From: Candidatus Saccharimonadota bacterium
GTDB taxonomy: Bacteria; Patescibacteriota; Gracilibacteria; Absconditabacterales; Absconditicoccaceae
NCBI GenBank assembly: GCA_000503875.1
Contig: CP006913.1
Span: 180,001-212,000, forward strand
Direction of reading: 5' to 3'
DNA length: 32,000 nt
Shown: piece after piece, positions 3,653 through 31,242 of the stretch
Layout: each line of letters begins with the position of its first letter
Position numbering within the stretch: the stretch's first letter is position 1
The notes under the pieces: model-generated
What the model was told of the DNA's origin: nothing
The model's database searches: none
The model's input: the letters and a program-made list of their open reading frames with translations, nothing else
Made by a program: the position numbers and the translations under genes

Positions 3653-6600
3653 TTAATAAGAAATTCCCAATTCCAAAGAGTATCCCCATGGATACTTTTT
3701 TTGTTTGTCCCAAAGAACGGCTTTTACGGTATCATCATTGGTAAGATCACTATCAACATCTACAAAAGGACAAGGACATTGTAAGCAAGGTGGGGTTGTT
3801 ACAAACAAACAATCTTTCATATCTTGAGGACAATTTAAACATGTTTCTCCAGCATCTTGTCATCCATTTCCGCAATTAGGTCATCATCATGGAATAATTG
3901 GTCAATCTATATCAGTAATATCTCCTAATCATGGTTGACCTGCAGGAGACCAGTTATTATCACAATATATTTCCAATCACAATTCAGGGCATCCATCATA
4001 ATCAGTAATTCCATTTCGTGATTCTGGAATAAGAGGACAAAGATCTTCCTTATCTGGAAAACTATCACCATCAGTATCTATAATAGGAGCAAGTCGATCA
4101 ATAGAGTCTTTATCAAAAGCTGTTTCCATTGCATCACCAATACCATTTTTATTTTGATCTCATTGATTGGGGTTGGGCATATATGGAGCATTATCTAATG
4201 TACAAATTCCTTTGAAATGTATTTTGAGAAGATCGGTATTGATCAGCGTTTGATTTGGACTTTTCGTAATAGTTGTTAGATAACTACAGTTTTTTGGAAC
4301 ATTTGGATTTATTGTTCCCAAGAGATTATTAATTCCATCGCCATCAATATCCATATCACAGATATCAGGTATACTATCTTTATCCATATCACAAACAAAA
4401 TCTAAGAGTGTTCCATCTAATTTTGATTGAAGACAGAAATCTTGTCCGCCTACAGCTAAAGTTGCTTGCGCAGAAAGCTGAGTACATTGATCCAAAGAAA
4501 GATTTGTTTGAGGATAATACACTCATGGATTCTTATAGATATGTTTATTTTCTAGAGGAAAAACGATACGATTGGAAAGAGGAAATATAGTGGAATTGTT
4601 ATCACCAGCAACAATATTTGCAAAAATAAGATCGGCAAAAGAATCTCCCAAAGGAAGTATTTTAAAAGTAAATGTTTGAAAAGTAGTTAATTCCAACGAA
4701 GAAGGAAGAAGTTGAATTGCATATGAAGAAAACAAATTATTTGATCCTACAAAAAGAGTAATCATATTTTGAAGTCTAGTTCCATCATCAAGAAAAATAG
4801 TTTGAAGAACAACTTTTTTCCCCACAGATTGATAACTATAACGAGTTGTTGTTAGTGTTGTTTCTATCGTTTCTCAGTCACCGAAATCCCATATAATACG
4901 AGAAACAGAAGAAGGAAGAAAATTAGATAATTTTGTTTCAAAAACAACTTCTTCATATTTTTCTGGAAGCAATGTTGAAGGCAATAACATGCTTCAATAT
5001 GCAGTATCTCATACACCAAATGAAAACAAAGTAGCTGCTACAATTTCTCATTTACGAATTGCTTTTATACTAATTGGATATGTTCCTGCTGTAATAAATT
5101 TCTTTTTGAGAACTGGCTTTTCTGTAGTAGCTGTTGCGCTTCAAAAAGTTCGTTCATAAGAATCGTGGTTACCCAATGCAGACAAAGAAAAAGATCATTC
5201 TCCTCAAACTGGAGCAATCAACGAAGTATTTAATGCATATAATCATTGTTTTTCATTGGTATCTCTTCAAACAATAATAGTAGTTTTTGCATAAGCATCA
5301 TTGGTTCATTTTCCTTTGGCAAAAAGGCGAATAGTATAAAGTCATGGACTGAAATAAGTATGAGAAATGCTAGATCATGATCCAATAGATCAATCACCGA
5401 AATCCCATTTAAGATCTGTTACTGGTCATTTACTTAATGCACCAAATGTGATGGTTTTTGGTACGGAACCTTCCATTTTCTGGATAGCAATACTCAAAGA
5501 TAAGTTCGCAGATAATTGTTCGCATGCATCACCAACTCAATTTCAATTAGTATCGGCTTGATCTTTATTGACAATAAATAAACAATTATCGATAGTAGGA
5601 GTCCAAAGCGCAACATTAACATTTCAGTTATCATCTAATATACCTATCGGATTTTTGATACCTTCATTATCAACGTCATCATCACAAACATCACCTATTT
5701 TATCTTTATCATAATCTCTTTGTTGAGGATTGTAGCCAGTTGGACAGCTATCTTGAGCATTATCAATTCCATCACAATCATAATCGTTATTGAAAGAACA
5801 TCCAATCAAACTATTAATTCTAGAAAGAATTTCTACAGCCAATTTTCCGTCAATTAATGTTCCTATATTATATTTTACAGCATCATCTAGGGAAATCATT
5901 TGTTGTCTATAGAGCACATTAAGTTCTGCAACAGGCCAATATCCTTCCTTAATTTTTTCAAAAGGAATCATACCACATTCCTTGAGATTAAACATACAAT
6001 ATTTGAGATAAATATTTAATTCATTTGCATCCTGGAGACTGCATATTTGTTTACCGCATTCTTTAGATCTTTTTTCAATTATTTTGATATCATCTTCACT
6101 AAGATTTTTATAAGCGTAACTTCGAGAATTTAAATCATCTACCCATGCCTCCACAGTATTCCAATTAAGTGAATAAATTGGATACAAATATTTGGCTATC
6201 ATATTGATAATTACTTGCAAAAATTCAGCTTTGGTAGTATTTCTTGTTCCACAAAATTCACCCGCACAGACAGGACTGGTTTCCAAGGGATAACCTCTCA
6301 TATACGTTCTATCCCCAACGTATGCTACACAATAATAATAACTTTTTTTATTGTACGAAGCCTGTCTATATAAAATATCATCAAAATCCCTTCCAGGCTC
6401 TGCAGTAAATTTTTGCCAAAAAAGATTAGTATATCTATTGAGATAATCATTATTTGGAACGATACAATCTTTACATTCTACAGCATTCAATAATCTAGTT
6501 AGCTCATAACGGTTAATTCCTGTATTGGAAAGTATAGAATTAATAGGAATATTCATGTTTAGAAGCTGCTCTACAAAACCAGAAAAATCTGCACGGGCTT

Positions 6601-6664
6601 GTGTTCCTGCATATAATCACAAAAAAGCAACTATACCATAGATAAATATTCTGATTTTTTTCAT
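3653..6664 (-). CDS. large secreted/cell-surface protein with thrombospondin type-3-like Ca-binding repeats (1003 aa)
   Basis: ORF-track pieces 5624..6556, 4523..4825 and 4160..4522 share one frame. I found no in-frame TAA or TAG between 6664 and 3656. Signal peptide MKKIRIFIYGIVAFLGLYAGTQA. Repeated DxDxDGxxDxxDxCP motifs (DYDCDGIDNAQDSCP, DMDIDGDGINN, DTDGDSFPDKEDLCP). Cys-rich C-terminus. Confidence 0.8.
3677..3702 (+). terminator. terminator hairpin for the ferredoxin gene
   Basis: GTATCC-ccat-GGATAC followed by a T run. It lies inside the last codons of the convergent 3653..6664 gene. Confidence 0.45.
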
Positions 6665-9413: not shown

Positions 9414-9794
9414 TTATTGTTTTTTTTCCAACTTTTTAAGTTGGTCTACATCTCTTCCGGAAAGCCTAAAGACAAGAATAAATTCTGATTTATCGTTGTC
9501 CTTTAAATGACCTTCCAAAGATACAATATTCTTAGAACGATAGCAATTTGTTACGACTCCTTCCAAAGGAGTAGTTTGACCATCAGCGTCGATAAATAAA
9601 GTCAATTGTTCTGTATCTGCTTTAATGTAGATCCCATATTGTTGTATAACATTTAATTGATTATACGATGGACTAATTTTTTTTGTTAATATGGAAACAT
9701 CGTCTAAATTGGTAAAAGCAGGGTTGTTTGTTGTTTGCGCACATGATGCATTTGTAATTATTACAAAAAACATCAAAATCATAGCTGTTCTCAT
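9414..9794 (-). CDS. small secreted or lipoprotein-like protein, hypothetical
   Basis: Signal peptide MRTAMILMFFVIITNASC. TAA stop. No TGA. Confidence 0.65.
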   Translation of the reverse strand: MRTAMILMFFVIITNASCAQTTNNPAFTNLDDVSILTKKISPSYNQLNVIQQYGIYIKADTEQLTLFIDADGQTTPLEGVVTNCYRSKNIVSLEGHLKDNDKSEFILVFRLSGRDVDQLKKLEKKQ

Positions 9795-9880
9795 CTTTTG
9801 TTTGATTTATGTTTGCATATTTATTATAAACAAAAAAATAGAAAAGTCAATAGTAATTTTATTTATAAATTAGTCACTTT

Positions 9881-12933: not shown

Positions 12934-13380
12934 TTATATAAGACTAGAATCATTAATTTTATCTAATCTTTCTTTATTGAATGACTTATCTTTTTGTTCG
13001 AAAATGGTTTGTGTTTGATCGCCACCTTTAGCTCTTTTCATAGTTGTTTTTAATGGGTCAACCTTATCATAATTTGCTTGAAATTTTCTTGGAGAATCAA
13101 AAAAAAGATTCCTAACCAGCTTTGCAACAAAAGCAATCAATCCTAATTCTGACATTTTGAAAAAAGCCACAAAAACGAAAATCAAAAGGACAAGAACAGC
13201 TAATAATGCTCAGATAGCTTTCCCTCCTGATTTGGAAAAGGTGTTGAAAATAGCCATTGCTGCCGCTACACCAACTCCCACAACAAAAAGTTGTACAATA
13301 GATAGCGTGATAGGACCAATTTGAAAGGTCATACCAGCAAGCATTCCTTTTTGAATATTTTTTGGAAAAACAACTTTCAT
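12934..13380 (-). CDS. PrgI-family-like small membrane protein
   Basis: MKVVFPKNIQKGMLAGMTFQIGPITLSIVQL, then two TM segments, then LVRNLFFDSPRKFQ. This layout is typical of the PrgI family proteins common in CPR genomes. One sense TGA. Confidence 0.5.
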
Positions 13381-15046: not shown

Positions 15047-15439
15047 TTAATCATTGAGCTCTTCCATCTTTTTGACTGTCATTACCAATATTTTGGGACC
15101 TCGGGGAGCCAGTACACAGGTATCAATACTCACCATAAGATAATACTCTTCTTCATAGCTTTCAAGACCATACCGATAAAAAGCTTCATCATTTTGTGCA
15201 ACGAAATATTCTTTCTCGCCCAATTTGATTTTGTATTCAGCTTTTTCGATAGCTTCCTCATTAAATTGCTCAAAGAGGTATCTGTAGGTTGGCTCCAGAA
15301 TGATAATTTTTTTGTCAAAATCAATATTATCGATTAATTTCTGAAGTTCATGATCTTTTTTTTCTTTCCAACTTTTACAGGAAGAAAGTAAAAGCAAAGA
15401 AAGAAAAAGTATTATCACTATACGAGTACTTTGTTTCAT
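15047..15439 (-). CDS. lipoprotein, hypothetical
   Basis: Signal peptide with lipobox LLLLSSC. No TGA. TAA stop. Confidence 0.7.
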   Translation of the reverse strand: MKQSTRIVIILFLSLLLLSSCKSWKEKKDHELQKLIDNIDFDKKIIILEPTYRYLFEQFNEEAIEKAEYKIKLGEKEYFVAQNDEAFYRYGLESYEEEYYLMVSIDTCVLAPRGPKILVMTVKKMEELND

Positions 15440-15585
15440 ATTTTAGATCTCCTTTATTTAGTTTGTGTTTTATTTTTCTAAAGAATATATATTAGGAAGA
15501 ATAAGTCAATAAAAATAGCAATGATATTGATTTTGTGGTAAAAATAGATAAAACAACAAAAAGATTTATCTTTTTCTAAGGTTTC

Positions 15586-23554: not shown

Positions 23555-23974
23555 ATGGAAAATTCTATTAATTTCTCAAGCAATGCAGTTAGATCAATTT
23601 CAAAACTTATGGACAAAGTTTGAGCTACCTGTGATCAACTTATCGGAGCATTGGAAGTTTCTAAAGATGGAGTATCTTCATACGGGGTAAGAATTACTGA
23701 TAATGCTATGAGTACAGAATTTGTAGATAGAGTAGTAGGATATCTATTATTACTCAAAAAACATATGTTTGATTTAAGAAAAAATGTTCGCACTCATATG
23801 AACTTTCAAGAACAACATCAAGTAGCTCATATTGTAGAACATCTTCTTGAAACCCAAGATAAATTAAAAGCAAAAATGATAGAAAGCAATTACTTCAATA
23901 ATACGTATGGATACTTAGTAAATGATATCTTTGAAATGATGGATGCTGTGGTAAGAAAGTTACCCGTTAAATAA
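23555..23974 (+). CDS. hypothetical protein (139 aa)
   Basis: The ATG at 23555 is in frame with ORF 23651..23974 through one sense TGA. Terminator-like hairpin downstream. Confidence 0.55.
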
Positions 23975-24048
23975 GGTCATGTGTACAAACATATAGGTGC
24001 CTCATTCCAAAAAAAATCTTCCTGTATATCTTGGAGATTTTTTTTAAC

Positions 24049-24078
24049 AAAAAAAACAGGTTGAGAAAACTCAACCTG
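24049..24078 (-). terminator. terminator for paralog A
   Basis: CAGGTTGAG-aaaa-CTCAACCTG hairpin with a T8 run on the minus strand. Confidence 0.6.
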
Positions 24079-24088
24079 CTCTAGAATT

Positions 24089-24478
24089 TCAATTTAATGA
24101 AGATCCACAGTAAAACATTTTTCCTCTTCTTAAATCTATGATTTCTCTTAGAGGCAATCTTCCTTGACGGAAAATGTAATCATATATATAAGAGAGCTTA
24201 TTGAGGAAACGTTGTCTGAAGCTTTCAGCATCTGGGCCTTTATACAAAAATACTTTCCCAGAATCTAAATTAACCAAAACAACGATTTTTTGAGTCTGCA
24301 TCAAGTCTTTTATTTTTTGTTGGACTTCTGCAGAGTTTTGACAAGGAGTTGGATTGTTTAAGATAACATGTTCTTCCTCCATAATCATTTGAGGAGACAA
24401 AAAATCTTTTTCAACCTTTAGTTTTTCGATTTGTTCCACGGAACACTCAGTTCCGCTAAATAATAAATAATTTTTCAT
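24089..24478 (-). CDS. KGPD-motif small protein, paralog A (uncharacterised family)
   Basis: ORF track 24089..24487; the ATG at 24478 gives MKNYLLFSG. Shares the core VVLVNLDSGKVFLYKGPD and a C-terminal Asn with the genes at 26018 and 27107. No TGA codon. Confidence 0.75.
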   Translation of the reverse strand: MKNYLLFSGTECSVEQIEKLKVEKDFLSPQMIMEEEHVILNNPTPCQNSAEVQQKIKDLMQTQKIVVLVNLDSGKVFLYKGPDAESFRQRFLNKLSYIYDYIFRQGRLPLREIIDLRRGKMFYCGSSLN

Positions 24479-24487
24479 AGATTCCAA

Positions 24488-24544
24488 TTTTTAGGGTTTT
24501 TTGGTAAGCTTAGTTTACATATTTAAATGACAAAGTCAAGTCAA
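24488..24544 (-). promoter_or_regulatory. conserved promoter and 5'UTR of paralog A
   Basis: On the minus strand: TTGACTTGACTT box (24544-24534), an AT-rich -10 candidate, then AAAAAACCCTAAAAA (24502-24488) just upstream of the start. Confidence 0.4.
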
Positions 24545-24629
24545 GCGAGCTATCAAACAAAAATATCTTGAAAAATTTATAACTAAATATACCATATTGA
24601 TCGATTTTTTTATTTTTAATTATTCTTTG

Positions 24630-25979
24630 ATGGCGAAACCAATTCCTAGTATTGGGCTTATGGTCCCTGATATTCTTTTACCAAAAGCTTCTGTTGATCT
24701 CAAAAAACGAGCAGTGGTAGCATGTGATCAATACACCTCTCAACCAGAATATCGACAAGAAGTAGCAAATTTCGTAGGACAAGATCCATCTACGTTATCT
24801 ATTATTTATCCAGAAGTATATCTCGAAGAAGAGAACAAAGCAGAAAGAATTGAAGCAATCAAACAAGCTATGAATACCTATCTTACCCAAGGAATCCTCG
24901 AAAACCAAGGAGAATGTTTGCTCCTTATCGATAGAAAAACATCTCATGCAGACTCGAGAAAAGGACTTATCCTCGCACTAGATCTCGAAGCATATGATTA
25001 TAGTAAAACGTCTCAAACACTTATCAGAGCTACAGAATGAACGATCGTAGATAGACTTCCTCCAAGAATCCAAGTCAGAAAAGACGCAACAATCGAATCA
25101 CCACATATTATGGTACTTATCGATGACGAAAGCAAAACCGTTATCGAACCACTTTTCACAAACAAAGCCAATTATACCAAAGTGTATGAAACCGATTTAA
25201 TGATGAATGGATGACATATTAGTGGATACAAAATCAATGATCCACAAAGCATCGAAAATATCGTTGCTGCACTTACAAAACTCGCAGATCCTGTTGGTTT
25301 CCAACAAAGATACCAAGTTGGTCCAGATAAATGAGTATTGCTTTTCGCAATGGGAGATGGAAACCATTCACTCGCTACAGCAAAAGCTATCCGAGAAGAG
25401 AAAAAACAATCACTTACACCAGAACAAAAAGCCGATCATCCAGCAAGATTTGCACTTATTGAACTCGTAAATGTGCATGATGATGGATTGACGTTCGAAC
25501 CGATTCACAGAGTGCTTTTCAATATCAACCCAGAAAACCTTCTCAACGATATGAAAGCGTATTTCTCACCATTGGGAACTGAGGTAACTATAGAAACATT
25601 TGCTAGCAAAGAGCAAAGAACAGCACAACTCAAAAAGTCTGATCTTACAACACAATACTTCACCTTCGTATATCAAGGAACTTACGGACAAATTGCTCTT
25701 CATCATCCAAAACTCAATCTAGAAGTAGGAAATCTCCAAGCATTTTTGGATGACTACCTCAAACTTCATCAAGAAGCAAAAATAGATTATGTGCATGGAG
25801 AAGACGTAACCGAAAAACTCGGAATGCAAGCAAACAATATGGGATTCCTTTTGCCTATTATGGACAAAAAAGACTTCTTCAAAACCGTAGTCGTAGACGG
25901 AGCACTTCCAAGAAAAACCTTCTCTATGGGAGAAGCTGAAGAAAAAAGATTTTACCTAGAATGCAGAAAAATAATATAG
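24630..25979 (+). CDS. DUF1015 family protein (449 aa)
   Basis: IRATEGTIVDRLPPRI, SPHIMVLIDD, GDGNHSLATAK and PRKTFSMGEAEEKRFYLECR are typical DUF1015 blocks. Pieces 24597.. and 25338.. are in one frame with 3 sense TGAs. Confidence 0.8.
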
Positions 25980-25980
25980 G

Positions 25981-26011
25981 AAAAAAGCCAGCTGGAATCA
26001 GCTGGCTTTTT
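25981..26011. terminator. bidirectional terminator
   Basis: AAGCCAGCTG-gaat-CAGCTGGCTT hairpin flanked by A and T runs, between convergent genes. Confidence 0.65.
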
Positions 26012-26017
26012 CATCAA

Positions 26018-26470
26018 TTAGTTTAAGACAGGATCAACCTCAATCTGTGGTGGACAGTCACTTATATCTTCAATACTTTCCAAACAGGGTTCACACTCAT
26101 CATATACCCAAGCATAAAGGCAAAAGAATGGAGGAAGAAGAAGTTTTTTTACAACTTCCTTATCCGGTCCCTTGTAGATAAATGCTTTGTCTTTCTCAAG
26201 GCTAACTAGAATAGCAACCGAATTTGATTTTAATTGCGAAAGAATGAATTGATTTGCATCTCGATATCCCTCAATTAAAAGCGGTATTCTGACAGTTAAT
26301 CCTAGCTCTTGAACAACAAAAAGTTGTTTCATAGAAGTGATCAATTCCTTTATTTCTTCTTTGATACAGGCATCTGTGCATTTACTGCTACAGGTATTGC
26401 ATCCTAAGATAATTTTTTCATCTAACTCTGGGCCTTTCCCGGCTAGTAGTACTAAAAATTTATCATTCAT
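26018..26470 (-). CDS. KGPD-motif small protein, paralog B (Cys-rich variant)
   Basis: MNDKFLVLLAGKGPE.., CNTCSSKCTDAC, AILVSLEKDKAFIYKGPD, and a C-terminal ..DECEPC..DC..VLN. No TGA codon. Confidence 0.75.
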   Translation of the reverse strand: MNDKFLVLLAGKGPELDEKIILGCNTCSSKCTDACIKEEIKELITSMKQLFVVQELGLTVRIPLLIEGYRDANQFILSQLKSNSVAILVSLEKDKAFIYKGPDKEVVKKLLLPPFFCLYAWVYDECEPCLESIEDISDCPPQIEVDPVLN

Positions 26471-26527
26471 GTTTTAGGTTTTTTTTGTTTTTCTCGTATT
26501 TTATAAATATTTCCTACAAAAAGTCAA
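26471..26527 (-). promoter_or_regulatory. conserved promoter and 5'UTR of paralog B
   Basis: On the minus strand: TTGACTT (26527-26521), 18 nt, TAAAAT (26503-26498), then AAAAAAAACCTAAAAC (26486-26471) abutting the ATG. Confidence 0.45.
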
Positions 26528-26595
26528 TAATTGTTGTTTTTGGAAAGCAAATACTTATATTTAATTCAGAATTTATCTTTTTTAGAAAAGGAAAA

Positions 26596-27075
26596 ATGCT
26601 AACAGACCAGCGAAAACAATTGTTAGATGATGAGTATTTAATAGCAAGAAATGCAACGGATTATACAAGAGAAGAAATTAATGAAGAAGAAGCTTATCAG
26701 AATATAAAAGATTTTATAAAAAAACATATTCATCAAGTCTTGGTAGGCAAACTCGAGGAAGATATTTGGCTAACCGAAAAAGAAATAAAAAAACTTCCTT
26801 ATCGAGTAGGTCATTTTCTCCGTTATAGTGAATATAGAGGAATAAAATATTATGTTCTCAAAAAAAATGATTTAAAATATATCTCTATAGGTGTTTTTTG
26901 ATCAACAGGAGCGAGGACAAACGAATATTATTTTGATAAACTTATTACCGATCCAGATATCCAACCTATCGTCCAAACAACTACTTTCCAACTTTCAGAG
27001 GTCTTGGGTAACCATGGAAAACGAATTAAATGGAAACAAGGAATGCAAAAGAAATGGAGAAGATTGACGAGATAA
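26596..27075 (+). CDS. hypothetical protein (159 aa)
   Basis: ATG at 26596, preceded by aaaggaaaa, inside ORF 26485..26901. Continues through the TGA at 26899 to TAA at 27073-27075. Confidence 0.55.
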
Positions 27076-27076
27076 G

Positions 27077-27108
27077 AAAACCCGCCTACAATTAGGCGGG
27101 GCTTTTTT
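27077..27108. terminator. bidirectional terminator
   Basis: CCCGCCT-acaatt-AGGCGGG hairpin with a flanking A run and T6 run. Confidence 0.65.
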
Positions 27109-27604
27109 AATTTGCACACGTAGTAATTTTGGGAAGATTCTCCAAATCTCGTAGATCTCCCAAATGAAGAATTTCAAGAGATAACCCCGTATATCGAAAG
27201 TTATATAACACCAAGAAATTAGGTATATATAATTCTTGAATACGAGTAGGATCCGGTCCTCGGTAGAGATATCCTTTTTTGGTAACAATATTTACCAAGA
27301 TAAGTACTTTAATACTTTCATCAGGGAGAAGTTCTTGAATAAGTTCGTTTGCGTCTTCAAGACAAGCAAACAAAACAGGGAAATCAAGAGCCATTTTTTC
27401 TTGTTCGATAAACATGTATTTCCCGATAGCAAATCCCATTGAAAAGATAATATGAGGAATGCATTCTGATGGTTCTTCACAATGCTTACAATTTTCTTTA
27501 ATATATTCCTCAATATTTCCTGACTGCTTAAATACGTGTTGAATTTCGACTACTTCCTCATTGAGAGGCTGTTGTCCGACAAATACGACAAATGGAGTCT
27601 CCAT
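27107..27604 (-). CDS. KGPD-motif small protein, paralog C
   Basis: METPFVVFVGQQP.., NCKHCEEPSEC, VLILVNIVTKKGYLYRGPD, and a C-terminal ..TTCAN. No TGA codon. Confidence 0.75.
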   Translation of the reverse strand: METPFVVFVGQQPLNEEVVEIQHVFKQSGNIEEYIKENCKHCEEPSECIPHIIFSMGFAIGKYMFIEQEKMALDFPVLFACLEDANELIQELLPDESIKVLILVNIVTKKGYLYRGPDPTRIQELYIPNFLVLYNFRYTGLSLEILHLGDLRDLENLPKITTCAN

Positions 27605-27612
27605 ATTATTTA

Positions 27613-27670
27613 GATTTTAGTTTTTTTCTATTTACAGTGATGTTTTTATCTATTTTATAGATAAAGTCAA
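27613..27670 (-). promoter_or_regulatory. conserved promoter and 5'UTR of paralog C
   Basis: On the minus strand: TTGACTT (27670-27664), an AT-rich -10 candidate, then AAAAAAACTAAAATC (27627-27613). Confidence 0.4.
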
Positions 27671-27725
27671 TATCTGTTGATTTCAAGAAGTAAATACCTA
27701 TAGTCGCCAGACAAATAACAAAAAT

Positions 27726-27992
27726 ATGGAATTAGATAAATTAAAAAATGGAATACTAGTGGTTACCGATATCCCAAACCACGTATTTGACGGCATAAAA
27801 GGAATTATATTGGATATTGATTTACGCAACGGCGTAGTGGATATGAGTATCGATGATGATAGATACAAAGAAATTACCTCTTTGAAGGTTCACTATACTA
27901 AACTAAAAGAACGAAAATCTCCGTGAATTACACGGGGATTTTTCTATAGTGAAAAGCTTGAAATATATCATAAGAAGAGTAAGCTAAACTAA
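27726..27992 (+). CDS. small hypothetical protein (88 aa under code 25; 66 aa if the TGA at 27924 terminated)
   Basis: ORF 27726..27926 ends at a TGA that sits at the 5' foot of a terminator-like hairpin. Under code 25 the frame runs on to TAA at 27990-27992. Confidence 0.45.
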
Positions 27993-28017
27993 AAATTTAA
28001 TTCATTACTTCAATGCG

Positions 28018-28359
28018 ATGGATATTAAAGAGCTGCAAAAACTTATTTTAGCTTTTAGAGATGCTAGAGATCGAAAACAATTTCATAATCCAAAAGATCT
28101 CGCGACCGCTATTGCAATTGAAGCTGGAGAATTACAAGAAAAATTTCTTTGGAAGTCACAAGAAAAATCATACGAAATAGGAAAAAATGATCCAGAAGTT
28201 AGCGAAGAAGTCGCAGATATTCTAAATTTTCTATTACTTTTCGCAGAAGAATGCAATATAGACCTAATCAAGGTTTCTTTGGATAAATTAGAAAAAAATA
28301 ATAAAAAATACGATGCGGAGAAAGCAAAAGGAAGGAGTGATAAATATAATAAACTTTAA
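28018..28359 (+). CDS. MazG-like nucleotide pyrophosphohydrolase (dCTPase/all-alpha NTP-PPase family)
   Basis: FRDARDRKQFHNPKDLATAIAIEAGELQEKFLW...EEVADILNFLLLFAEECNIDL...KLEKNNKKY carries the EExxE..D metal-binding signature of MazG-domain proteins. Confidence 0.8.
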   Translation: MDIKELQKLILAFRDARDRKQFHNPKDLATAIAIEAGELQEKFLWKSQEKSYEIGKNDPEVSEEVADILNFLLLFAEECNIDLIKVSLDKLEKNNKKYDAEKAKGRSDKYNKL

Positions 28360-28374
28360 TTTTCTTAAACTTTC

Positions 28375-29967
28375 ATGTCAACAATAATTACTGAACATCC
28401 ATTTAATAAAAGTTATGCAGATAGTTTTACTTTTAACGAACGAAACTATAATTGGCCTGTCGTGTATATTTTAAAATGACAAGAATATATTTATATTTGA
28501 GAAACATCTAATATATTTAAAAGAACTCACGACCATTTAAAAAATGAAGAAAAAGTAATACGTTTGAATAATATGTTTGTTCTTTATGATATAGAATATA
28601 ATAAATCTGCTACATTAGATATTGAATCTCAATTAATTCAATATATTTCTGCTGAAAATTCATTTAAATTACAAAATAAAAATGATGGTTTAAAGGATCA
28701 TCACTATTACGATCGTGAAAAATATATTGCTAAGTTTGAAGAAATTTGGAAAGAACTTATAAAGGAAAAAATAGTAAAAAAAGATCTAAACGAAATAAAA
28801 AACAGTGATTTGTTTAAATATTCTCCATATAAAGCTTTAAATACAGATCAATATGAAATTGTATCAGATATTTATGAGCAGATTAAATTATGAAATAATT
28901 GAACATATATAATTAAATGAGAACCTTGAACTTGAAAGAGTGTTGTCGCTAGTTATTTGATTAAATACTTAAAGTGAAAAGAAGAAACAAAAAATTTGAA
29001 AATCTGACTTGTTGTTCCAATGGCTTCGCTAAGATCTACTTTTAAAAAGGTATTTAAAAACATAGATTGATTAAAATCTTCAATGGTTATTTGACCAAAT
29101 GATTTAGCAAAAAATTATAATGTAAATAACAAAGTTCCATATGATATAATAATAGTAGATGAATCTCATAGATTACAAAAGAGAAAAAATATTACTAATT
29201 ATAAAGCATATGATGATGTTAATTCAAAGTTGGGATTGTCAAAAGATTCTACACAACTTGATTGGGTTTTGAACTTATCTAAAATTCAAATATTATTGTA
29301 CGATAGCAATCAATCAATTAAGCCAGCAGATGTTAATCAGAATGATTTTGCCAAAATAGAAAGTGCAAAATCATATGAATTAAAAAGCCAAATGAGAGTG
29401 AAGTGATGAAATGAATATTTAGATTTTGTTACCAATTTATTTGATTGATGAAGAACTGAATTTGATAAAATCAAAAACTATGATTTTAAGATATATGATA
29501 ATTTCAGTGAATTTAGAAGTGATATTATGTGAAAAGACAAAGAATTTTGATTATCTAGAATTGTTGCAGGATATGCACGACCTCGAAGATCAAAAGACAA
29601 TCCTAATGAATACGATATAGAAATTGATTGAATAAAAATATTTCGAAATTCAACAAATATTGATTGGCCCAATTCCCCAAATGCTTTGAATGAAGTATGA
29701 TGTATCCATACTGTGCAGTGATATGATTTGAATTATGTATGAGTTATTTTATGAGAAGAATTATCTTATGATAAGAATACATGAAAATTTATAATCAAGA
29801 AAGAAAACTATCACGATAGTAAATGAAAAATTTGAATTGATGATGAATATGAACTGGAGAGATATATAATAAATATTTATAAAACATTACTTACCCGCTG
29901 AATATTATGAACATATGTATATATAGTTGATAAAGATTTGAGAGAATATTTTAAAGGGAAAATTTAG
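28375..29967 (+). CDS. GIY-YIG-like nuclease domain fused to a DUF2075 P-loop NTPase/helicase-like protein (530 aa)
   Basis: N-terminus VVYILKGQEYIYIGETSNIFKRTHDHL. Walker A GEPGTGKS. Walker B IIIVDESHRL. DUF2075-type C-terminus RIVAGYA..VGCIHTVQGYDLNYVGVILGEEL. 27 sense TGA codons by my count. Only 28564..28893 appears in the ORF track. Confidence 0.75.
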
Positions 29968-29973
29968 AAGTAA
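29875..29973 (+). repeat. 99-bp direct repeat, copy 1 (3' end of the DUF2075 gene)
   Basis: atttataaaacattacttacccgctgaat...gggaaaatttagaagtaa. 95/99 identical to 30771-30869. Confidence 0.9.
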
Positions 29974-29997
29974 TTTTTTATTTCATCATAGAAACAC

Positions 29998-30768
29998 ATG
30001 CGTTATCTCATTATGTTGCTTATGCTTTTTACATTTCTTTTCGGGTCAGTAAGTTTTGCTCATCCTGGTAGAACAGCGTCAGATGGATGTCATTATTGTA
30101 GAACTAATTGTGATTCTTGGTGAGTGGCTTGGAATCAAAGACATTGTCATTGAGGTTCAACAACGCCTAGCTATACACCTCCGCCTGTTTATCAACCAAC
30201 GCCAACTGAGAAATGTCAATCGTCATACTGATCAAACTCCTATTATAATTCTACTTCTAACTCTTGTGATTGTAACTATTGATATGAGCTAAACTCAGCT
30301 AAAACCTATTGTGTAATAGAAAAGACTAAAACACCAACAGAGGAATGTAAAGAAACATATTGATCAAACTCCTATTATGATACCACATCTGATGTTTGTA
30401 AGTGTGTATCTTGATATGAGCTAAACTCAACCAAAACTTCTTGTGTAATAGAAAAGGAATGTAAAGAAATATATTGATCAAACTCCTATTATGATAGTAC
30501 ATCTAATGCTTGTGAGTGTATATATAGATATGAACGAGATTCAGCTAAAAAAGATTGCATTAAATCGAAGATAATTGAAGAAAAAGCTAAGACACCTACT
30601 GAAAAGTGTCAAGATAAATATTGATTAAACTCTTATTGATTAGAGAGCACTGATTGATTAGATGATTGTTATTGTAAGAATTGATATCAATGGTCTTTAA
30701 ATAATACTAGTTGTGTTCTTAAAAAGAAGAAAACACGATGGAATTATATAAAAGATTTTTTTAATTAA
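29998..30768 (+). CDS. secreted YHYH-like N-terminal domain protein with four Cys-rich tandem repeats (256 aa)
   Basis: Signal peptide MRYLIMLLMLFTFLFGSVSFA. HPGRTASDGCHYCRTNCDSWGV..HCHGG. Four repeats of the type C.(E/Q)xYGSNSYYxxTSxxCxCxxGYELNSxKxxC. 11 sense TGAs. Confidence 0.7.
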
Positions 30769-30770
30769 AC

Positions 30771-30869
30771 ATTTATAAAACATTACTTACTCGCTGAATA
30801 TTATGAACATATGTATATATAGTTGATAAAGATTTGAGAGAATATTTTAAAGGAAAAATCCAGAAGTAA
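30771..30869 (+). repeat. 99-bp direct repeat, copy 2 (orphan DUF2075 3'-end fragment)
   Basis: Begins 2 nt after the stop of the 29998 gene. In this copy the TAG of copy 1 is CAG. Confidence 0.9.
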
Positions 30870-30894
30870 AATTTTAATATATTATAAATGAATA

Positions 30895-31242
30895 ATGAGT
30901 CTAAAACGGAAATTAACCCTGTCTTGATGTTTAACATTATTTAGTACAATAGCATTAAGCGTGTGAGCTACTTATTTCTCCTGAATTGATAAGTATTATC
31001 GACTTTTTATTTTATGAATTGTTTTTTGAACTGTTCAGATCTTGTTAAGTATTTTTCATAAAACAATAGAAGAAGAGTGGTATGAACAAGAAAAAAATAA
31101 TCATGCTGCAGTTAGAAGAAAAGAATGATATATGTCCGAACTAGAAGGAGCTTGCTTATATTGAGCAACAGAAGCAATAAAAAAATGAGATTTAGATGAA
31201 GCAAAAAAACTGAGCGATTTAAAGAATAGCTTTTTAAAATAA
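30895..31242 (+). CDS. small membrane protein, hypothetical (115 aa)
   Basis: ATG..TAA is open only with 8 sense TGAs. Two hydrophobic segments followed by a charged helical tail. Confidence 0.45.

Follow-up and report, generated by a model that had tools for sequence, protein, structure and literature searches.

We describe three minus-strand genes, A, B and C, that lie within a 32,000-nucleotide (nt) stretch of DNA (hereafter the window; contig CP006913.1, positions 180,001 to 212,000 of the forward strand) from the 1.18-Mb genome of the candidate division SR1 (Absconditabacteria) bacterium RAAC1_SR1_1. All three (G0202, G0204 and G0206) carry the annotation "hypothetical protein," and together they belong to a previously undescribed family of stand-alone proteins that is so far confined to close relatives of RAAC1_SR1_1. 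The family, which we name KGPD after a motif in its conserved core, occupies fixed genomic slots in which anciently diverged types appear to be exchanged beside defence genes. We tentatively read its members, at a probability of roughly 35%, as polymorphic immunity-, inhibitor- or anti-defence-like binding modules.

A reading of the window made from its letters alone (the sequence-only reading) had proposed that the three open reading frames (ORFs) are paralogs, perhaps lineage-specific, of a family that it did not recognise. The ORFs are present where it placed them, and their paralogy is confirmed by pairwise BLASTP (E = 1e-9 for A/B, 3e-12 for B/C, and 1e-9 for A/C; 24–27% identity). When 1.84 billion cluster representatives were searched exhaustively with an HMMER profile, only 21 relatives emerged at E<1e-3, in keeping with a lineage-specific family; all are unfused proteins of 71–165 amino acids (aa), one of them a 71-aa fragment and the others at least 109 aa long. 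One related locus was found among the 185,579 species representatives of GTDB, and the metagenomes of the Joint Genome Institute (JGI) gave one small contig with a family locus, a first JGI scan having given none. A k-mer-indexed database search produced almost no match outside the query genome, IMG/VR yielded no family locus, and tblastn with A and B found no match in 50,697 phage records. Similarly, profile searches of Pfam-A, NCBIfam, PHROGs, and PADLOC assigned none of the 22 members scanned to a housekeeping or any other family; the scattered library matches (E≥0.0036) each concerned a single member, and none was common to two.

The architecture that had been proposed for the three proteins is borne out across the whole 22-member alignment, from which the conserved features were read. 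An N-terminal strand, M..(F/Y)hhhxG (h, hydrophobic), comes first, an acidic EE precedes a short Pro-ended strand (β2), and the core, hhLV(D/N)L…K.F(L/I)YKGPD, is followed by an aromatic helix, (Y)LP+F..hY, and then by a strand, L..I.D.R. Conserved polar positions are few, namely the EE before β2, the Y-K-G-P-D turn, and I-x-D-x-R. One element of the earlier description has to be withdrawn: the Cys-rich insert is not a family feature, for CxxC clusters occur only in B, C, and the members P0003 and P0005, and the 22-member alignment holds no conserved Cys column. Isoelectric points (pI) range from 4.3 to 9.7, most members being acidic.

The C-terminal tail, some 10–30 residues long, is hypervariable and has no conserved sequence, and it terminates in [L/M/K/…]-N. 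Asn is the last residue of 18 of the 22 members but of only 4 of 30 other genes in the window (P≈8e-13), and in two more members the Asn is immediately followed by a sense UGA. The terminal codons AAC and AAT are used about equally, which points to selection on the amino acid and not on the DNA. A DNA-level role for the terminal Asn as a cassette boundary (AAYTAA resembling the leader box described below) was judged unlikely, given that both codons are used and that 3' flanks differ between slots. The terminal Asn has been lost via an indel in L001_B, a relative of B. A further, very divergent member in the related locus L002 (HMM E=5e-6) does not end in Asn.

A near-invariant terminal Asn, apparently selected as an amino acid and borne on a disordered, hypervariable tail, could belong to a carrier or precursor that undergoes chemical modification at its C-terminus, either by MccB-type adenylation via a succinimide or by Pup-like deamidation and ligation; the domain would then be the recognition or leader part and the tail the payload. 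An obligatory terminal Asn is a hallmark of MccA peptides. However, known MccA peptides have 7–56 aa, whereas the KGPD proteins have 109–165 aa with a folded domain, and this domain is not conserved in the manner of a leader of ribosomally synthesised and post-translationally modified peptides. In addition, neither the window nor the fetched related loci yielded a ThiF/MccB-like, PafA-like or peptidase gene, a ThiF-like gene being absent from the genes scanned or annotated in the window, L001, L003, L006, and L011, and no MccB, MccC or other mcc gene lies nearby. With some copies also lacking the terminal Asn, we regard a modified carrier as very unlikely. A ubiquitin- or Pup-like modifier was rejected: the predicted fold, β1-α1-β2-α2-β3β4-α3-β5, is neither a β-grasp nor a disordered Pup, and the tails end in -N, not in GG or GGQ/E.

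That fold comes from an AlphaFold model of A built on the 22-sequence alignment, with a predicted local distance difference test (pLDDT) score of 89.7 and a predicted TM-score (pTM) of 0.82; a model from four sequences only was uninformative (pLDDT 47). It predicts an α/β domain of about 120 residues in the order β1(4–11)-α1-β2 hairpin-α2-β3-β4 hairpin-long kinked α3-β5, with tail residues 121–129 disordered. Foldseek found no match to the model at E<1e-3 in PDB or BFVD, the best query-normalised TM-scores being 0.35–0.40. By this structural comparison, which covers PDB and BFVD, the domain is a candidate for a new fold. Matches to CE-clan proteases (SENP, ChlaDUB) were set aside, as they extend over just some 55 residues and neither Cys nor His is conserved in the family.

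A β-hairpin leading into a long helix, with the motif hhhhD…hYhW/KG, raised the further possibility of a distant bacterial member of the gelsolin/ADF-H group. The top profile match in PDB was indeed Thorarchaeota ProGel 7c2f_B (E=0.11, over 33 residues), and gelsolin domains and Sec23 recur among the weak Foldseek matches, at query-normalised TM-scores of 0.31–0.35. However, hhalign of the family against a gelsolin G1 alignment returned a probability of 0.3%, no member matches Pfam Gelsolin (PF00626) or Cofilin (PF00241) even at E≤10, and all TM-scores stay below 0.4, the best gelsolin matches having root-mean-square deviations of 5.4–6.7 Å. The short motif fits motif III of the UvrD/GajB helicases equally well, by chance. 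On the hhalign result and this second fit the lead was rejected, and we give it next to no credence.

The evidence that most shapes our interpretation comes from the genomic slots. The paralogs are not scattered: in relatives, as here, they have the 139-aa ORF and DUF1015 as conserved neighbours. The 139-aa ORF converges on an A-slot family gene, which is divergent from DUF1015, which in turn converges on a B-slot family gene; this arrangement recurs in L001, L002, and L015 and in partial form on the short contigs L004, L009, L010, and L011. L006 is otherwise rearranged: an Mrr gene and three small ORFs separate DUF1015 from a tandem pair of family genes, and the second gene of this pair is convergent with the 139-aa ORF. 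Every genome seen has two to three family copies in the same slots. The regular alternation with opposite-strand genes, to which attention had also been drawn, is peculiar to the present genome, since tandem or same-strand copies occur in L006 and L002.

That these slots hold anciently diverged types follows from comparing flanks, cassettes, and the one ortholog pair. Between related genomes the 139-aa protein, DUF1015, and CorA are 81–91% identical, whereas the same-slot family proteins of those genomes share 22–31% identity, with the exception of B and L001_B (83%). At the DNA level the flanks are 73–83% identical up to about 9 nt before the ATG, and again from the stop codon, and blastn finds no match within the coding sequences of same-slot family genes. 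The sole ortholog pair, B and L001_B, has a ratio of nonsynonymous to synonymous substitution rates (dN/dS) of 0.117 (dS ~0.6–0.9), as do its neighbours (0.08–0.13), and fast drift or positive selection was rejected on these grounds as the cause of slot divergence. The A slot alone has at least four allelic types. The types appear to be exchanged by recombination in the conserved flanks, each under ordinary purifying selection. The make-up of P0018, in which an L001A-type cassette is joined to the window-type 3' flank, UGA included, is consistent with such flank recombination.

Two other sources of cassette diversity were rejected. Targets of diversity-generating retroelements are not indicated, as the loci contain no reverse transcriptase and divergence spans the whole coding sequence and not the C-terminal region alone. 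Integron cassettes do not fit either, as every copy has its own promoter, leader, and intrinsic terminator and the loci contain no integrase. DUF1015 has been proposed to be a serine kinase (SerBK) able to replace SerB (bioRxiv 10.1101/2024.10.14.618325); given this role, it was treated as a housekeeping anchor and rejected as a functional partner. Relatives have an extra gene beside DUF1015 that is absent from the window and encodes a multi-pass membrane protein of 133–136 aa; the intervals L001 10529–10930 and L002 2465–2875 and 1988–2395 cover this gene together with the very divergent L002 family member mentioned above.

The slots also bear on the plainest alternative, that the KGPD proteins are ordinary lineage-specific ORFans with housekeeping or accessory functions, whose divergence reflects relaxed constraint or old paralog shuffling and is not linked to conflict. 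The family is limited to one narrow clade, 53% of RAAC1 SR1 proteins match no known family (PMC3812714), and synteny alone could account for the neighbours. However, relaxed constraint sits poorly with purifying selection on the ortholog pair (dN/dS 0.117) and with the retention, at about 25% identity, of the motifs, the terminal Asn, the leader box, and UGA avoidance. Nor would it lead one to expect two to three copies held in the same slots in every genome seen, or so sharp a discontinuity between flank and cassette. We therefore find this explanation rather unlikely.

To follow the individual genes, the genetic code must be taken into account. TGA interrupts many long ORFs of the window (G+C ~31%), for example 27 times in the 1003-codon ORF 3653..6664 and 27 times in 28375..29967. 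Because TGA takes the place of the invariant Gly in the TrxB motif IIATGA and likewise in VETLGS and IGDPTE, two P-type ATPase motifs, UGA is read as Gly (code 25), and the same recoding has been published for the RAAC1 SR1 genome (PMC3812714). This alters the end of A. Its 129 codons up to the Asn at 24092 are followed by an in-frame UGA (Gly) at 24089–24091, 14 further codons, and a TAA at 24044; what had been taken for the stop is a sense codon, and A probably has 144 aa and not 129, matching the deposited AHB41009.1. The statements that all three proteins end in Asn and that none of the genes contains UGA accordingly hold for B and C and fail for A, since A as translated reads past the Asn via this UGA. 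The same Asn-UGA-flank junction recurs in P0018, whose cassette is of another type; either the extension is simply tolerated, or the junction hints that UGA behaviour depends on context.

Each paralog is predicted to be an autonomous transcription unit with a near-consensus σ70 promoter, a leader, and an intrinsic terminator (Table 1). Bidirectional terminators shared with the convergent plus-strand gene had been suggested for all three; they are predicted for B and C. The upstream TTGACTT, once listed as a shared family element, proves to be a generic strong −35 of this genome, found also before the unrelated genes 9414..9794 and 15047..15439. At 9844–9850 and 15503–15509 (minus strand), ATTGACTT stands as the −35 of these two small lipoprotein-like genes, both of them free of UGA; ATTGACTT appears to be the strong-promoter consensus of the genome.

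Table 1. Coordinates in the window of the KGPD-family genes, their predicted regulatory elements, and the genes around them.
Feature	Position	Strand	Description
Paralog A	24044..24478	-	P148_SR1C00001G0202, AHB41009.1; probably 144 aa; short "A-slot" type
Paralog B	26018..26470	-	G0204, AHB41011.1; 150 aa; long type; CxxCx4Cx3C insert; ends Asn-TAA
Paralog C	27107..27604	-	G0206, AHB41013.1; 165 aa; long type; CxxCx5C insert; ends Asn-TAA
5'UTR box of A	24489..24501	-	AAAAACCCTAAAA; 10-nt core begins 20 nt upstream of ATG
5'UTR box of B	26472..26484	-	AAAAAACCTAAAA; box ends 1 nt before ATG
5'UTR box of C	27615..27627	-	AAAAAAACTAAAA
Predicted promoter of A	24512..24539	-	TTGACT-16-TAAACT
Predicted promoter of B	26498..26527	-	TTGACT-18-TAAAAT; 10/12 consensus matches
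Predicted promoter region of C	27652..27680	-	scan: TCAACA-17-TAAAAT at 27680-27652; TTGACTT at 27664-27670 inside
Predicted intrinsic terminator of A	24053..24082	-	within UGA read-through extension of A
Predicted bidirectional terminator, B and DUF1015	25981..26012	.	
Predicted bidirectional terminator, C and 159-aa ORF	27081..27100	.	
139-aa anchor gene	23555..23974	+	convergent with A slot; 83-91% identical in relatives
DUF1015	24630..25979	+	conserved anchor between A and B slots; 85-90% identical in relatives
Variable region beside B and C	26596..29967	+	relatives carry Fic, Mrr, and MmeI genes here
159-aa ORF	26596-27075	+	orphan, divergent from B
88-aa ORF	27726-27992	+	orphan, divergent from C
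MazG-like gene	28018-28359	+	in variable region
GIY-YIG + DUF2075 gene, Nhi/AbiO-like	28375-29967	+	PADLOC AbiO and Nhi models, E=4e-12

Another shared element lies in the 5' untranslated region (UTR). The window contains exactly three copies of a box, AAAAA(A/C)C(C)TAAAA, and each paralog has one of them just upstream. In the family at large the box reads AAAC(C)CTAAAA. Its 10-nt core, AA[AC]C[CT]TAAAA (or AAAACTAAAA), was searched on both strands of the window and all fetched related loci, 161 kb in all. Of the 19 occurrences, 13 precede a family ATG, by 11 or 19–21 nt (in one case by 40 nt); in the non-redundant count 9 of 13 fall within 70 nt upstream of a family start, in windows that make up 0.6% of the searched sequence (P≈8e-18). 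The motif noticed in the sequence-only reading is thus no product of generic base composition. The same box is found in four further loci. At least four independent slots contain it although the rest of their flanking DNA is unrelated; it is therefore specific to the family, not a leftover of orthologous flank. The leaders are short, A/C-rich, and without a Shine-Dalgarno sequence; they fold no better than shuffled sequences (z-scores +0.45 to +0.81), and an Rfam scan of the window gave two tRNAs only, with no leader or riboswitch match. Because the leaders are unstructured and match nothing in Rfam, we take the box to be a linear site.

Several housekeeping genes of the window are preceded, upstream of 1900, 2794, 13628, and 23555, by a different pattern, AACAAT…TTTATACTTAC, about 10–25 nt before the ATG. 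This pattern suggests very short leaders and a second promoter/leader class, distinct from that of the KGPD family.

A box that is conserved and family-specific, that keeps its distance from the ATG in four or more independent slots, and that would be a linear site because the leaders are unstructured could belong to an autoregulatory or co-regulated RNA-binding or regulatory family, in which the proteins themselves or one common factor bind AAAC(C)CUAAAA. Against this, Foldseek against PDB and a Pfam scan revealed no known RNA- or DNA-binding fold or motif, the proteins are mostly acidic, and extreme allelic diversity would be unexpected if the target site is invariant. We consider a regulatory family quite improbable.

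The genes share one more property. In 18 non-redundant family genes UGA accounts for 0 of 85 Gly codons, compared with 328 of 1167 (28%) in their neighbours. Other genes that are small and plausibly highly expressed are likewise UGA-free, namely rpsP, thioredoxin, and the TTGACTT-driven lipoprotein genes; a foreign, standard-code origin of the family was rejected for this reason. The simplest reading of UGA avoidance is selection for efficient, high-level expression, which fits the near-consensus promoters, and the family genes are probably strongly expressed. A practical consequence is that the proteins could be expressed directly in Escherichia coli. The 159-aa and 88-aa ORFs each contain one in-frame UGA, at which a standard-code stop would fall after 101 aa and 66 aa, respectively.

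Beyond B and C the slots appear, from gene content, to border a hotspot of defence-gene integration. Where the window has its MazG-like and Nhi/AbiO-like genes, L001 has genes for Fic, an Mrr-type nuclease, an MmeI-type restriction-modification enzyme, and SocA/Panacea. The 159-aa and 88-aa ORFs match no known family even at E≤10; a guess from sequence that the 159-aa neighbour is a RelE/ParE-like toxin was dropped, as neither Pfam nor PADLOC supports it at that threshold. The GIY-YIG and DUF2075 gene has a G+C content of 24% and UGA in 27 of its 31 Gly codons, and the two ORFs after it, up to 31242, have UGA in 11 of 15 and 8 of 9. The interval 28375–31242 looks like an island, its codon usage being far from that of the rest of the window (~20% UGA when these genes and the large surface protein at 3653–6664 are left out). 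Two copies of a 121-nt direct repeat, 91% identical, lie at 29870–29990 and 30766–30886 and copy the 3' end of the DUF2075 gene. They flank the gene of a 256-aa Cys-rich protein that has three internal repeats of about 127 nt (30198–30570), and this layout suggests an insertion or duplication.

These features add up, for us, to an immunity-like resemblance, because the types are discrete and under purifying selection, the neighbourhood contains conflict genes, the proteins are small and cytosolic, and each genome has several copies. Three roles had been suggested from the window alone; an immunity- or antitoxin-like role fits best, given divergent alleles and defence neighbours, and a redox or metal-binding role is not retained, as Cys clusters occur in a subset only. 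If the resemblance is real, the proteins would be abundant cytosolic specificity modules, whose variable surface and tail would recognise a diversifying partner from a phage, competitor or prey. The conserved patch (EE, YKGPD, DxR) and the terminal Asn would carry out a step common to all types, and the shared 5'UTR box would put every copy under one post-transcriptional control.

It is equally important to state what weighs against such modules. Every copy is monocistronic, and no cognate gene for a toxin, nuclease or receptor varies together with the cassettes. A cognate toxin or operon partner is absent, the neighbours being housekeeping genes or variable ORFs without a toxin-family match, and because of this absence the proteins cannot be classed with the toxin-antitoxin or immunity families. 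Put differently, of the marks of type II toxin-antitoxin systems and of immunity to polymorphic toxins, divergent alleles near conflict genes were found and an adjacent toxin was not. PADLOC is silent on the family, and the adjacency to defence genes, which is known from one narrow clade, may be simple synteny. The terminal Asn is not indispensable everywhere, as A and P0018 continue through UGA into an extension (15 residues in A) and L001_B has lost the residue to an indel. Finally, with pI values of 4.3–9.7 there is no uniform DNA-mimic character.

The same apparent strong expression and polymorphic alleles could also mark effectors that an epibiotic or predatory candidate phyla radiation (CPR) bacterium secretes or translocates, the Asn tail being a C-terminal export signal (for example, for a Patescibacteria machine like a type IV secretion system, T4SS) and an arms race with prey driving diversity. 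The tail is disordered, and its end follows a loose pattern in which an aromatic residue often stands a few positions ahead of a final [L/M/K]-N; the window contains a weak PrgI/VirB3-like gene and L006 a DUF87/VirB4-like ATPase, and T4SSs are widespread in CPR bacteria, with substrates unknown (bioRxiv 10.1101/2025.01.22.634366). However, a signal peptide is absent, a terminal Asn is not known to serve any secretion system, the loci are not linked to a T4SS coupling protein, the domain shows no signature of catalysis, and some copies have lost the Asn. We think it unlikely that the proteins are exported effectors. The PrgI-like gene, at 12934–13380 (minus strand), encodes a 148-aa membrane protein whose match to PrgI, a VirB3-like T4SS component, is below the Pfam cutoff (E=9e-4); its ortholog in L006 is in the same locus as the ATPase, about 12 kb away. 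The window also encodes a secreted protein of 1003 aa (3653–6664, minus strand), with many Asp-rich, calcium-binding-like repeats (DxDxDG…), Cys-rich segments, and 27 UGA-Gly codons, which is probably a large surface protein of the epibiont.

A bolder proposal joins several of these strands: a strongly expressed, polymorphic specificity protein with a new fold would take part in conflicts of an SR1 bacterium that lives as an epibiont or predator, the obligatory Asn of the protein's tail would be a novel recognition signal (for T4SS-like export, or for C-terminal processing or nucleotidylation), and the lack of UGA would allow expression in standard-code cells. In this full form we hold the proposal to be improbable.

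The biology of how tiny, recoded SR1 epibionts meet hosts, phages, and competitors is largely uncharted, and ancient alleles swapped in conserved slots beside defence genes mark immunity, recognition or effector roles elsewhere in bacteria. If our favoured reading is true, the family offers an entry to the conflict biology of Absconditabacteria and possibly a new fold. It is also tractable, being small, with a confident model and with testable signatures in the terminal Asn, the private 5'UTR box, and total UGA avoidance. Should the conflict reading be wrong, what is left is still a well-defined orphan family with a mapped regulatory element.

It is instructive to set the family beside the known systems that it most resembles. 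With gelsolin/ADF-H domains it shares, locally, a β-hairpin and a long helix with a similar hydrophobic-Asp…aromatic-Gly motif; the two differ in the N-terminal half, there is no profile-profile similarity, and TM-scores are 0.35 or less. Like the microcin C precursor MccA, the KGPD proteins have a C-terminal Asn that ends a variable peptide (18 of 22 members), but they include a folded domain and exceed twice the length of the longest MccA known (56 aa). Pherotype or specificity cassettes (comC, agrD/agrB, comQX) resemble the family in coming as discrete types at one fixed locus, in changing abruptly from flank to cassette, and in having a hypervariable C-terminal segment. Theirs, however, are short secreted peptides with adjacent, co-varying receptor or processing genes, and the KGPD product is a folded 120-aa domain that lacks both a signal peptide and a co-varying neighbour. 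Prophage morons and anti-defence cassettes are likewise promoter-gene-terminator units between conserved genes, often in opposite orientation and with high turnover, whereas the KGPD loci lie outside prophages, have no homolog in the 50,697 phage records or IMG/VR, and occupy stable slots.

The comparison that we favour is with polymorphic or orphan immunity loci, such as orphan cdiI and tsi genes and the acquired interbacterial defence clusters of Bacteroidales. These too consist of small cytosolic proteins, each genome having several of them in a variable region next to conflict genes, with deeply divergent alleles in conserved flanks and each allele under purifying selection. The KGPD family differs in having neither sequence nor fold kinship to known immunity families and no linked toxin, and in being a single family, each copy of which has its own promoter, leader box, and terminator. 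Orphan families are frequent in CPR genomes. None of the families, folds or systems described so far accommodates the KGPD proteins.

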